Source: Candidatus Moraniibacteriota bacterium
GTDB lineage: Bacteria > Patescibacteriota > Minisyncoccia > Moranbacterales > UBA11712
Direction: 5' to 3'
Assembly: GCA_026396255.1 (NCBI GenBank)
Contig: JAPLXD010000013.1
Location: forward strand, 1 to 43,703
Length of the DNA: 43,703 bases
The notes under the pieces are model-generated. The model was not told where the DNA came from and ran no database searches. It saw only the letters and a program-made list of their open reading frames with translations. Both the position numbers and the translations under genes were made by a program. This document shows, one piece after another, positions 2,724 to 6,436 of this stretch; position 1 is the stretch's first letter; every line of letters begins with the position of its first letter.

Positions 2724-3038
2724 TCAACCCCAAAAACATCCAAATTTGTCTTTTTCAATCATATTCAGTACATTTTTGAAAGATTTATATCCCCCGTAAA
2801 ATTCCCATTTCCCGGAAGCTCGCATCCAAAAGAGTTTCCACCTGCCGGAAATTTTAACAAAAGTCATTTTTGCTACCGAAAGTTTTGTCCACGGCTTCGC
2901 ACTGCCGTCCCAAGTCGGTCGGGTTTCGTACAAAATATAGCTATTCCCCGATTTTTCCGCGACATTTTGAATCTTGTCTGCCACGTGTTCCGGAACTTTG
3001 AATTTTTCTTCGATTTTTTGGATAGTAGGGTCGGTCAT
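2724..3038 (-). CDS. DUF3024-like protein
   Basis: YETRPTW, VAKMTFVK..GRWKLFWMRASGKWEFY and DKFGCFWG match the remembered DUF3024 pattern. Confidence 0.75.
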   Translation of the reverse strand: MTDPTIQKIEEKFKVPEHVADKIQNVAEKSGNSYILYETRPTWDGSAKPWTKLSVAKMTFVKISGRWKLFWMRASGKWEFYGGYKSFKNVLNMIEKDKFGCFWG

Positions 3039-3097: not shown

Positions 3098-4348
3098 TTA
3101 TTTGCTGGAAGCCCTTTTCGCGATGCCTGTCCATTCCGCGGACGGTGCTTGATAAAGAAAAGCCACTATCGCATCCCGTTTGTAGCCCCTTTTCTCCATA
3201 TCGTCGATTCCTTTAATCCATTTTTTTATGTCTTTTTTGAATCCATCATCCAAAGCATATTCAACTACTTGATTAATTTGTTCCGGATTATAACGCAGCG
3301 GATAATTGACAGACCATTTGTAGTTTTCTTTTATCGCTTTTTCAATTTGGCCAGCGAAGAGCGGAATATTCTTTTCAATATATTTTCTGAAATGAGGCAT
3401 ATAAAAACCTGACAACACTTTATAGAGTGATGCCGTAGAACAGCCTCCTTTATATTGAGCTATTGTTTCATCTCTCATCAACTTGTCTAATCCAAAATAT
3501 TCACGCGAGGCCTTTGCAGTAATTTTCATAAATTCAGTCAAATATTCTTTTGTATCCGGAGTTAACTTAGGTAAAAGTCTCAGACTATCAGAATATAGTC
3601 GAGTGGGTATAAAAAGTTTATTGAGCTGATGTTGTTCTTCATGGATCATTGTGCTCGTGTCATCTTCTTTGGAGCCAGTAAATTTTCCAATAGTGACCAA
3701 CTCATTCAACTCTGTATTTTTCATATTCGAAAAAGCCAACCCTTGGGTATTGCTATTTCCGGTTATGGTTGCTAAATCATCTTCTGTCAACATTTGAAAT
3801 CTGGAAATTGTTTGATGATGAAAAGCGCGTTCATAGTCAATTGGGTTGCAATAAAAATGCAGGGAGATGGGAGTTCGTAATACCTTAACTAATCCCTTGG
3901 GATTGAGCCCGAATACGACATGGAATAATTCTGCGTCATCGGGATATCTTAACCGATAGCTCTCAACTATTTTATGTCTTCTTTCATATTCGTTTGCAGC
4001 ATGTTCGAAATTTTCCAGTTGGTTTTCAGTGAGCCTGAAGCGCGGTGCCCCTTTCTGTACTAATGCGAAAAGATCTTTTCCCTGAATGTCGGGATTTTTG
4101 TGAATGGCATCGTTCATATCGATAATTGTCTTTGCAGTGCCCGCCTCTTGGTGAGTCAATTCCAGTTTGAATTCTTCCAACCATGTTTTTTTGAGTTCAA
4201 GCCTTTCATTCAGCGGCATGTCTTTTCGCTCTTTCAACGTCTCCTGAATTTTATGAAGCTCTTCCTTTGGATCAAAAGGAATGTAATCTTTCGCAGCATA
4301 TTCTTCTGACTCTGGCATTGCTATGGGTTCTTGCTCAAGTTTTTTCAT
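3098..4348 (-). CDS. Hypothetical protein with HExxH motif (possible zinc metallopeptidase)
   Basis: 416-aa ORF containing MIHEEQHQ and a downstream RDETIA; visibly AT-richer than its neighbours. Confidence 0.65.
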   Translation of the reverse strand: MKKLEQEPIAMPESEEYAAKDYIPFDPKEELHKIQETLKERKDMPLNERLELKKTWLEEFKLELTHQEAGTAKTIIDMNDAIHKNPDIQGKDLFALVQKGAPRFRLTENQLENFEHAANEYERRHKIVESYRLRYPDDAELFHVVFGLNPKGLVKVLRTPISLHFYCNPIDYERAFHHQTISRFQMLTEDDLATITGNSNTQGLAFSNMKNTELNELVTIGKFTGSKEDDTSTMIHEEQHQLNKLFIPTRLYSDSLRLLPKLTPDTKEYLTEFMKITAKASREYFGLDKLMRDETIAQYKGGCSTASLYKVLSGFYMPHFRKYIEKNIPLFAGQIEKAIKENYKWSVNYPLRYNPEQINQVVEYALDDGFKKDIKKWIKGIDDMEKRGYKRDAIVAFLYQAPSAEWTGIAKRASSK

Positions 4349-4410
4349 TGTATTTATAAATAGTCAGAATATATTAAAAAGAATCTTTATACAAGCCATA
4401 TTTGCAAAAG

Positions 4411-4419
4411 TTATCCACA
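4411..4419 (+). promoter_or_regulatory. Single consensus DnaA box
   Basis: Exact TTATCCACA in intergenic DNA; function unproven. Confidence 0.35.
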
Positions 4420-4474
4420 GTGTCGGTATATAATGCAATATTTCGCCATTATTTGCGTAATATTTGTTAGCCTA

Positions 4475-4503
4475 TTGACAAAACCTGATTTTGGGAGTAG
4501 TCT
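4475..4503 (+). promoter_or_regulatory. Sigma70-type promoter with no downstream sense ORF
   Basis: TTGACA (4475-4480), 17 bp spacer, TAGTCT (4498-4503). Confidence 0.65.
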
Positions 4504-4509
4504 GTAGGT

Positions 4510-4561
4510 GTAAGCTCTGGGCTTGCCCGATTTTGATCGATAACCGCCGCAAGGCGGTTTT
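4510..4561 (+). ncRNA. Putative ~50-nt structured small RNA convergent with the NYN gene
   Basis: Bounded by the promoter and an AACCGCC-GCAA-GGCGGTT-TT terminator; internal hairpins GTAAGCT/GGCTTGC and CGAT/ATCG. Confidence 0.5.
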
Positions 4562-4568
4562 CTGATTT

Positions 4569-5186
4569 TCAATGTCTGAAACCGTCGAATCTATCCATGC
4601 TTATTCTATATTCGAAATCTTCAGCAAACAAGATATCCCTTACAGCACCATCATTTTTGGCATCAAAAACTTCCCTCCCTATATGATTCCTTGCTCCAAA
4701 AACATAGCATTCTTTTCTGTATTCTTCGTACAAATATTTCATTGCGTACATCAAGTCGCCGTCCCCGGAGAACAAAATTATCGTGTCATAGTTGTCCCGT
4801 TCTTTAACCAGATCAATTGCCATCTCCACGTCCAGATCGCACTTTTTTTCAAATCCGTATTTATTATCCGCGCTGTGGATGTATTTTACCCTCTTGCTTA
4901 TCACTTCAAATCCGCCCATCTCCGCTTTTTCCAAAATCAAGCGCGACCATTCAATCAGGTGATTTGATTTTTCATTTTTTCCATAATCAGATCCATAATA
5001 AAATCTTCTTAAAAATCTTCTTCCTGTCGAAAAATTTTTGCAAAGCTTTGCGAGCTCTTTAATTCCAACTCTCCAATCAAGGCTATATTTCCACTTTTCG
5101 ACATTGCCATAGTCGACAATGATTATAACCCGATCCTGTTTTCCGGAAAATGATTCGATAAATAATTTTATTTCCTCCTTTGTCAT
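4569..5186 (-). CDS. NYN domain (LabA/DUF88, PIN-like) ribonuclease
   Basis: IIVDYGN, RFYYG, KKCDLDVEMAID and LFSGDGD acidic motifs. Confidence 0.88.
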   Translation of the reverse strand: MTKEEIKLFIESFSGKQDRVIIIVDYGNVEKWKYSLDWRVGIKELAKLCKNFSTGRRFLRRFYYGSDYGKNEKSNHLIEWSRLILEKAEMGGFEVISKRVKYIHSADNKYGFEKKCDLDVEMAIDLVKERDNYDTIILFSGDGDLMYAMKYLYEEYRKECYVFGARNHIGREVFDAKNDGAVRDILFAEDFEYRISMDRFDGFRH

Positions 5187-5314
5187 TTATTCCGCTTATT
5201 AGTTCTTTCTACTATTATCCTATCAAAAATACCCTTATTTTTCAAGTAAATAACCTCTCTTGCGAAATGTGCCGAAGAAAAGTAAGATTAAATAACCGGC
5301 GTAATAAAAATCTT

Positions 5315-6436
5315 ATGAACACTTCCTATTCAGCCCTGGACGAGTTTCGGACTTGTCCGCTGAAGTACAAATATTCCCAAATCGACCGGATCAGAACTCC
5401 CAAGTCCAAGGAGCAGTTTTTTGGGACGCTGGTCCACAACACTTTGAAACTGGTACATACACCGGGCATCCTTTCCCCTACTCCCGAACAGGCGCTGGAT
5501 TTTTTTTCCAAAAATTGGAACGCGGAAGTTTTCGCGGATGAATTCGAAGAGCGGGCGGCTTTTGCGCAGGGCGTCGGAATGATCCAGGACTATTATAAAA
5601 AAAATGATCCGGCGAAAATAAACATCGTCGATCTGGAATCGCGTTTTCAAATCGAAGTGGGAGCGGAGGACGACAAACATATCGTTTCAGGGATCATCGA
5701 CCGAATTGACAAAATTGAGGACGGGTACGAGATCATCGACTACAAAACCACCCGCAAATTGCCGTCGCAGGAAAAAGTGGACAATGATCTCCAGCTCTCA
5801 ATCTATCTGGCGGCCTTCTTGAAGCGCTATCCGAAAGAAATTGAAAATCTTGGGAAGCTAAAGGTTTCCCTTTATTATCTCAAGCATGGCGTAAAATTGA
5901 GTTCCCAGAGGACGCTGGAACAGGTCAAACAGAGCGAAGAGTTGATGATCGACCTGATCAAGCAAATCCAGGGGTCGAAATTTGAGCCGACGCTTTCCGG
6001 CCTTTGCGACTGGTGCGGCTATCAAAATATCTGTCCGATGTGGAAGCATAAATTCAAAAAGGAGGAGCAGGAAGATATCGATAGCGCCAAAATAATCGAA
6101 GAATATATCGCGCTCAAAGACGAGATCAAATCGAAATCCGACCGCATCGGCGAACTTCAGGAAAAGCTCGGCGAGTATATGGACAGAGAAAAAGTCGACC
6201 AGGTTTTTTCGGATCTGGGGCGCGTTTTGCGGACAATCAGAAAAACCTATAAATATGACAAAGATCAGCTTCGTTTGATTCTTGAGCCGCTCGACAAATG
6301 GGAAGCGGTTTTGAAGGTAGATGGGATCGCGCTCAAAAATATTCTCGGCGTCCTGCCTGCCGGTGCACGAAGAGAAGCTGAGAAAGCCAAAGTTGTCGAC
6401 AAAGAATCGAAAAGTTTCGTTGTCAAAAAGGGATGA
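5315..6436 (+). CDS. PD-(D/E)XK RecB-family/Cas4-like nuclease with Fe-S cysteines and C-terminal extension
   Basis: SYSALD.F.TCPLKY, GTLVH, GIIDRID, IIDYKT, QLSIY, CDWC..NICP; start at ATG 5315. Confidence 0.85.
   Translation: MNTSYSALDEFRTCPLKYKYSQIDRIRTPKSKEQFFGTLVHNTLKLVHTPGILSPTPEQALDFFSKNWNAEVFADEFEERAAFAQGVGMIQDYYKKNDPAKINIVDLESRFQIEVGAEDDKHIVSGIIDRIDKIEDGYEIIDYKTTRKLPSQEKVDNDLQLSIYLAAFLKRYPKEIENLGKLKVSLYYLKHGVKLSSQRTLEQVKQSEELMIDLIKQIQGSKFEPTLSGLCDWCGYQNICPMWKHKFKKEEQEDIDSAKIIEEYIALKDEIKSKSDRIGELQEKLGEYMDREKVDQVFSDLGRVLRTIRKTYKYDKDQLRLILEPLDKWEAVLKVDGIALKNILGVLPAGARREAEKAKVVDKESKSFVVKKG

Follow-up and report, generated by a model that had tools for sequence, protein, structure and literature searches.

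The small RNA gene and the NYN gene at the locus

The locus described here lies in the window, that is, the whole 43,703-nt stretch of DNA that was analysed, which belongs to a genome of 0.93 Mb in 61 contigs. At this locus a gene for a nuclease of the NYN family and the gene of a predicted small RNA run towards each other and meet at their 3΄ ends, and the coordinates of these genes, their parts and their neighbours are collected in Table 1. The NYN protein scores 54.4 bits against the Pfam NYN domain (PF01936; cut-off 24.2, E 2.6e-14), which is its only Pfam match, and PADLOC matches it, weakly, to NYN and HEC-09. The AlphaFold2 model of the protein has a pLDDT of 89, and its only clear fold match is 2qip (E 3.2e-8; E 5.5e-5 by sequence), a LabA-like protein of unknown function. 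The residues D25, D117, D119, E121, D142 and D144 are invariant in 23 NYN orthologues. The window protein has its domain, its acidic residues and its fold in common with the LabA-like NYN proteins (PF01936, COG1432, 2qip) and, judged by its sequence, it is a LabA-like nuclease with an intact acidic active site and a predicted activity.

Table 1. Features of the locus and its surroundings in the window (R1 is the covariance model described in the text)
Feature	Position	Strand	Remarks
DUF3024 protein	2724-3038	-	matches PADLOC candidate PDC-S43, E 4e-25
416-aa protein, no family	3098-4348	-	window neighbour
DnaA-box 9-mer TTATCCACA	4411-4419		56 nt upstream of the -35 of the window
Small-RNA -35, TTGACA	4475-4480	+	position kept in 75/79 loci; TTGACA in 42 of these
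Small-RNA -10, TAGTCT (TAnnnT)	4498-4503	+	weak alone; 3/6 matches to TATAAT
Predicted small RNA, ~58 nt	4510-4568	+	R1, 78.1 bits
5΄ hairpin 1, GUAAGC-UCUGG-GCUUGC, 6 pairs	4510-4526	+	5/6 pairs doubly changed; predicted independently by RNAalifold
Unpaired segment AUUUUGAUC	4530-4538	+	DNA reads ATTTTGATC; at least 95% conserved over 61 distinct sequences
3΄ terminator hairpin, GCAA loop	4539-4562	+	terminator scan lists a GC-rich hairpin at 4542-4559
LabA-like NYN nuclease gene, 205 aa	4569-5186 (stop 4569-4571; 4572-5186 without stop)	-	Pfam NYN
Promoter-like site for NYN, TTGAAA-17-TAGGAT with TG	5217-5245	-	consensus match only
Cas4-like PD-(D/E)XK nuclease	5315-6436	+	also a weak Mu Gam-like TOTE-domain match

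The promoter of the small RNA was read from the sequence as two hexamers separated by a 17-nt spacer, and six bases lie between the -10 hexamer and hairpin 1. The start of the RNA was placed by its distance from this promoter and its end by the U-rich tail. The stretch of 66 nt folds, as a single sequence, at -26.8 kcal/mol (z = -3.9), and 0 of 200 shuffles did as well. The 3΄ hairpin may extend to 4535-4567 through four outer pairs (GAUC/GAUU). We discarded that pairing: the outer four pairs are invariant or mismatched and never compensated, and RNAalifold does not predict them, so AUUUUGAUC is read as single-stranded. After the terminator hairpin, the tail TTCTGATTTT runs into the NYN stop codon. 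The initial annotation had described a near-consensus promoter driving an RNA of about 50 nt, free of ORFs, that ends at a terminator some 8 bp from the NYN stop. The -35 hexamer, the terminator and the lack of a + strand ORF within the RNA (by the ORF list) agree with that description; the -10 hexamer departs from consensus and the promoter is missing from the list of the consensus promoter scanner, the RNA is longer than proposed, and the gap disappears, as the U-rich tail touches the stop codon.

The site of the small RNA contains neither a tRNA nor a tmRNA nor any tandem repeat, and no tandem or flanking repeats (mobile-element ends) were found around the module. None of the sequencing runs listed as containing the locus is an RNA run, and three metatranscriptome runs, including one whose sample bears the DNA, gave 0 contigs over 4000-5600, a result that is uninformative either way. 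A second contig, from the DNA run X2, spans the small RNA (window 4487-4559) with 7 differences, among them G4525A, which converts a U.G pair of hairpin 1 to U-A; since this contig differs from the window, a related organism in the X2 sample carries a variant of the RNA.

Linkage of the RNA to one NYN subfamily and conservation of its fold

Among 60 relatives of the window's genome, an orthologue of the NYN gene is present only in G023 (78% identity) and G007 (73%), and a distant NYN paralogue of about 170 aa occurs in nearly all of them. In both G023 and G007 a promoter-hairpin-linker-terminator unit abuts the NYN stop, and the flanking genes differ. In a protein-first scan, limited to one genome per species, 26 loci were obtained, of which L061 ends inside NYN and was not judged; the RNA unit adjoins the NYN orthologue in 25 of the 25 judgeable loci. 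The covariance model R1, built from a structure-blind MAFFT alignment of 21 orthologue loci, matches all 28 orthologue sources (the window, L007, L008 and L036-L060) with 44-83 bits, and at E <= 0.01 it matches 0 of 27 paralogous NYN loci. It also matches 78 of 80 metagenome loci found via the protein, which are 78 of 78 evaluable ones: in the two misses (L193 and L227) the sequence stops at the NYN end or no more than about 30 nt from it, and L247 is cut within the RNA. The subfamily of the window is thus the only group of LabA-like NYN proteins observed here with the RNA, and the ~170-aa paralogue goes without it.

The same association was seen in searches that started from the RNA. Of 150 genomes sampled across the phylum, 4 carry both the RNA and the NYN orthologue and the other 146 carry neither; in a class sample of 150, the RNA occurs in 2, each with an adjacent convergent NYN gene; and in an order sample of 150, it occurs in 4, two with NYN (G007 and G023) and two without (G052 and G214), these three samples overlapping in a few genomes and relatives not being independent. 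The order sample also holds G296, which carries an NYN gene cut by the contig end after 69 residues. Altogether, the two genes lie side by side in 8 of the 10 RNA-first matches and in all protein-first loci. The orphan RNAs of G052 and G214 retain promoter and fold, and tblastn detected no remnant of NYN; similarly, in L060 the NYN gene is broken (a stop after 80 codons and the remainder in pieces), and the RNA and its promoter are intact. No NYN orthologue lacking the RNA was found among the evaluable loci. The RNA is the single model match in each locus, except for a degenerate second copy in L234/L236. As judged from these sequences, the partnership of RNA and NYN is very likely real, and the two very likely form a two-part RNA-protein module; in this respect the initial annotation, which had proposed a small RNA dedicated to the NYN gene, is borne out.

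The fold of the RNA is conserved by compensatory change. In the MAFFT alignment the two-hairpin structure has 92.9% of its cells paired and 12 of its 20 pairs doubly changed, a level of pairing that was reached by 0 of 500 shuffles, and slid controls gave 30-54%. In the metagenome set, which adds 61 further distinct rows, 96.2% of the cells pair and 15 of the 20 pairs are doubly changed (131 cells), although these rows were aligned by R1 and therefore lean towards the model structure. The 15 pairs that RNAalifold predicts make up hairpin 1 and the inner part of the 3΄ hairpin, and compensatory changes occur in 11 of them. The functional strand is the one convergent with NYN, since G.U cells far outnumber A.C cells (131 versus 8) and the share of paired cells falls from 96.2% to 86.1% when the other strand is read. 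In alignments A1 and A2, AUUUUGAUC is nearly invariant, and the loops and the promoter spacer vary freely; within the small RNA only the loops vary, and these alignments contain no variable guide-like segment.

The promoter is conserved as well. In 75 of 79 non-redundant loci the model start is preceded, at a distance of 2-7 nt, by a -35/-10 pair with a 16-18 nt spacer, and a pair of the same spacing was found in 7 of 391 displaced control windows. This fixed distance makes the small-RNA promoter of the window credible in spite of its -10 hexamer, and in L007 and L059 the promoter is a perfect TTGACA-17-TATAAT. The initial annotation had proposed to look downstream of NYN homologues for a conserved promoter, an RNA motif and covariation, and to scan Rfam: the first three are present in the loci above, and no Rfam family matches the RNA of the window or of 12 related loci. 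The RNA is uncatalogued in Rfam 15.

The module is widely but thinly spread. The 23 aligned NYN proteins are 62-81% identical to that of the window and come from distant lineages, labelled Saccharibacteria, Uhrbacteria, Komeilibacteria, WWE3 and others; the window's relatives in public records bear the names Moranbacteria and other Patescibacteria. This patchiness, together with the degree of identity, points to horizontal spread or to an unusually strong constraint on the sequence.

Orientation, neighbouring genes and DnaA boxes

In every locus except L046 the RNA is convergent with NYN, and in 63 of 77 loci its modelled 3΄ end falls between -3 and +2 nt from the NYN stop. Because of this convergence, and with the sole exception of L046, the 3΄ hairpin of the RNA is the complement of the region where the NYN mRNA probably ends. 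Loci of the GAUCAAAA class have UUUU after the hairpin on the NYN strand too, so that the hairpin could terminate transcription both ways. In L046 both genes point the same way: an RNA scoring 82.8 bits precedes an intact NYN gene by about 60 nt, which gives the order promoter-RNA-terminator-enzyme.

A survey of nearest neighbours covered 128 ORFs of 83 non-redundant loci, and its figures are raw counts. Most neighbours are ordinary housekeeping genes. The commonest is HsdM (10 of 128 by N6_Mtase, 9 with HsdM_N), followed by HsdR domains (4-5), RadC (4), HsdS (2) and Fic (2), and the remainder are varied. In L238, L191, L047, L234, L254, L239 and L038 the NYN-RNA pair sits between the hsd genes of a type I restriction-modification (R-M) system, the order being hsdR, NYN, RNA, hsdM in L238 and hsdM, NYN, RNA, hsdS in L191 and L047; pairs inside hsd operons follow the strand of the operon, with a gap of 0-10 nt to the upstream hsd gene. 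The neighbours in the window (Table 1) may form a small defence-type neighbourhood of their own. Searches of the viral contigs of IMG/VR and of GenBank phages yielded no relative of the NYN protein, and so give the module no direct tie to phages. A scan of viral contigs with the pattern TTACCNNATTTTGATC returned 118 stretches and was too unspecific; we regard these as chance matches, since the best R1 score was 25 bits (100 of the 118 scanned).

A further feature upstream of the RNA is the DnaA box. Among the 78 loci with enough upstream sequence, 26 have a perfect DnaA box (TTATCCACA or TGTGGATAA, in either orientation) upstream of the RNA, mostly at positions -43 to -52 relative to the model start, just before the -35, and about 11 other perfect boxes occur across all 384 kb of these loci. 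The box of the window is farther from the -35 than in most relatives. The near-matches TGTGGACAA and TTATCCCCA are found in further loci, and L046 has two perfect boxes and one near-match inside 45 nt. On the side of the nuclease gene, L036, L037, L039 and L042 carry TGATA-N3-5-TATCA inverted repeats about 30-60 nt upstream of the NYN start; in several loci of the Moranbacteria type these overlap the likely NYN -10 and could be an operator.

How the RNA may act, and its relation to known systems

We propose that the RNA targets the NYN protein and does so in trans. A protein target is favoured by four points: RNA and NYN stay linked in either orientation, the invariant 9-mer is single-stranded, the RNA shows no pairing with the NYN start, and RNAs occur alone whereas no NYN gene was seen to. 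With regard to the third point, the pairing energy between the RNA and the NYN start region is -13.0 kcal/mol for cognate pairs, -12.2 for non-cognate pairs and -12.5 after shuffling, that is, without signal. The last point has to be read with care, since the asymmetry is partly forced by an RNA terminator that doubles as the terminator of NYN, and since a cofactor that NYN requires would produce it just as well as the antidote of a toxin. The action that we hold most probable, at somewhat less than an even chance, is that the RNA binds and restrains the nuclease in a type III-like manner. The invariant AUUUUGAUC and the two hairpins would bind NYN and hold it inactive; the supply of RNA would fall upon the shut-off of transcription by a phage or, where the promoter has a DnaA box, upon a shift in DnaA status; decay of the short RNA would free NYN; and the freed nuclease would cut cellular and/or invader RNA, with growth arrest or aborted infection as the outcome. 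On this analysis, a toxin-antitoxin (TA) or defence system is a plausible description of the module, and its patchy spread, differing flanks and insertion in hsd operons suggest a selfish or defence-like ecology. We are more hesitant about the wider possibility, less likely than not, of a new RNA-protein class of TA or abortive-infection systems, in which NYN would be held by a single 58-nt RNA with AUUUUGAUC as pseudo-substrate and with a DnaA-wired promoter, in many lineages. In that case RNA degradation in these ultra-small bacteria would be coupled to the replication status or to phage takeover.

The convergent arrangement invites an explanation in cis: the two genes would share a bidirectional terminator hairpin, their 3΄ ends would be complementary over about 25-35 nt, and pairing or collision of convergent polymerases would lower the stability or the output of the NYN mRNA. 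The tail-to-tail orientation in all loci but L046, the position of the 3΄ end at the NYN stop in 63 of 77 loci and the GAUCAAAA-class hairpin with UUUU on the NYN strand are what this explanation predicts; however, L046 retains both parts with no overlap, the orphan RNAs retain promoter and fold with no NYN gene, and neither the invariant unpaired 9-mer nor the covarying 5΄ hairpin, which lies beyond the overlap, would be required. Moreover, the small loops would probably make hairpin-hairpin pairing slow, and the cognate energies given above show no signal of pairing at the NYN start. We therefore consider a mechanism in cis unlikely. The initial annotation had held simple antisense control to be unlikely on the grounds that the RNA does not overlap the NYN gene; the co-directional L046 and the absent NYN-start pairing lend some support to its judgement, and the terminator hairpins, which would probably overlap in the other loci and so leave room for an antisense component, do not. 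We also discarded the likeness of the linker to NYN codons 8-15 as a site of pairing: the mRNA is U-rich there, as is the RNA, so the two cannot pair.

The remaining explanations concern what else the RNA could be if it does act in trans. NYN may depend on it for activity, with the RNA serving as cofactor, scaffold or fixed guide; in one variant, the invariant AUUUUGAUC could pick out targets that are complementary to it or resemble it. That every evaluable NYN locus has the RNA, and that its single-stranded segment is invariant, would fit such a ribonucleoprotein, as would the structured RNAs linked to PhoH2, another PIN-like nuclease, in the available part of a preprint (10.64898/2026.10.21.760802). 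Against this, the RNA has no variable guide-like segment, the orphan RNAs persist with no NYN to serve, and CCNATTTTGATC recurs only once in the window's own genome, isolated on a different contig in surroundings that do not match; for us an effector of this kind is quite improbable. Still less probable, in our judgement, is an independent regulatory role for the RNA, controlled by DnaA in many lineages, with NYN joined to it as a dedicated processing or turnover enzyme or as a gene that merely shares its terminator. In favour of this are the orphan RNAs with intact promoters and the perfect DnaA boxes, which closely precede the -35 in 26 of 78 loci and number about 11 elsewhere in the 384 kb, but the adjacency of the two genes in 8 of 10 RNA-first matches and in all protein-first loci is not accounted for, and a conserved target was not found. 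A mimicry of 16S rRNA was considered and rejected, as the universally conserved 16S 5΄ end (GAGUUUGAUCCUGG) shares with AUUUUGAUC only UUUGAUC, which is too short; the comparison used three NYN-bearing genomes (L269, L270 and L271), the window's own genome having no assembled 16S.

If the RNA restrains the nuclease, the nearest parallel would be the type III TA systems, which the initial annotation had named as its model. As far as the portions of the sources at hand describe them, these systems (ToxIN, CptIN and TenpIN, and also AvcID and the AbiF type) likewise lock a small non-coding RNA to the gene of an enzyme and, like the module, they do so with no protein antitoxin and are patchy, apparently horizontal and found in defence-type neighbourhoods. 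In ToxIN, CptIN and TenpIN the toxin is an endoribonuclease of the ToxN/AbiQ type, which is bound and blocked by the RNA and also processes it, and the antitoxin consists of tandem repeats upstream of the toxin gene on the same strand, followed by a terminator, whereas the protein of the module has the NYN (PIN-like) fold and its RNA is single-copy, has its own promoter and is convergent except in L046, the only locus that matches the promoter-RNA-terminator-enzyme order. With neither a ToxN/AbiQ fold nor a repeat array, the module lacks defining features of the families that the initial annotation named.

Other pairs of RNA and protein genes are similar in part. In Bacillus subtilis, txpA/RatA and bsrG/SR4 are convergent type I pairs whose RNA overlaps the 3΄ end of the toxin mRNA. 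They are tail to tail like the module, but their toxin is a small membrane peptide, whereas the module encodes a predicted soluble NYN nuclease of 205 aa, and in the module the overlap is limited to the terminator and absent in L046. PrrC is an anticodon nuclease whose gene is embedded in a type I R-M operon and which is held in check by the R-M proteins. As with PrrC, in L238, L191 and L047 the gene of a predicted latent RNase lies between hsd genes on the same strand; in contrast, PrrC is restrained by the R-M proteins and not by an RNA, and only a minority of the module loci are in R-M operons. The closest in form are the DUF3800-I to XI, drum and skipping-rope RNAs which, in the part of Weinberg et al. 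2017 (PMC5737381) available, are described as short, conserved, structured, ended by a terminator and compellingly associated with one protein family encoded close by in either orientation, with unknown function. The module has the covariation, the 3΄ terminator and the link to one family that mark these RNAs, and L046 represents the other orientation. The module differs from them in its partner, which is NYN and not DUF3800, in its fold, and in having no matching Rfam model.

No LabA-like NYN protein is known to us as a toxin or as the target of an inhibitory RNA. Our full-text searches of the literature found no NYN protein with a dedicated small RNA, and the preprint 10.64898/2026.09.15.751765 contains nothing on NYN-linked small RNAs; together with its absence from Rfam 15, this agrees with the initial annotation, to which the pairing appeared undescribed. 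The LabA-like NYN proteins are one of the largest nuclease families with no known job, and functional studies of the bacterial members are lacking, according to the accessible sections of Matelska 2017 (PMC5499597). The RNA partner is a first concrete handle on one NYN subfamily, as it offers a candidate ligand and a likely recognition sequence. If the RNA restrains the enzyme, RNA antitoxins would reach beyond the ToxN fold and repeat arrays, and Patescibacteria, whose regulatory RNAs and defences are barely charted, would gain a widespread module. Its DnaA boxes would make it a rare example of a small RNA linked to the initiator of replication. Were the RNA a cofactor, the module would be a new small ribonucleoprotein nuclease.

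The surroundings of some RNA copies deserve mention. In L234/L236, the degenerate copy (3668-3728, - strand; 38 bits) lacks AUUUUGAUC and lies about 500 nt past the first, and in L234 a DUF3800-V RNA (RF02964, 67.5 bits; 3464-3578, - strand) is found beside it. Similarly, in L277 the orphan RNA of G052 is directly downstream of a DUF3800-II RNA (RF02961, 51.6 bits), the two at 1501-1561 and 1633-1699, both on the - strand; the DUF3800-II RNA has its own promoter and terminator, so that two protein-linked small-RNA genes stand here in tandem with neither of their proteins. In L274, the orphan RNA of G214 (1501-1561, - strand; 83 bits), which has a promoter and a DnaA box, is flanked on either side by a Bro-N gene, as is typical of mobile elements.
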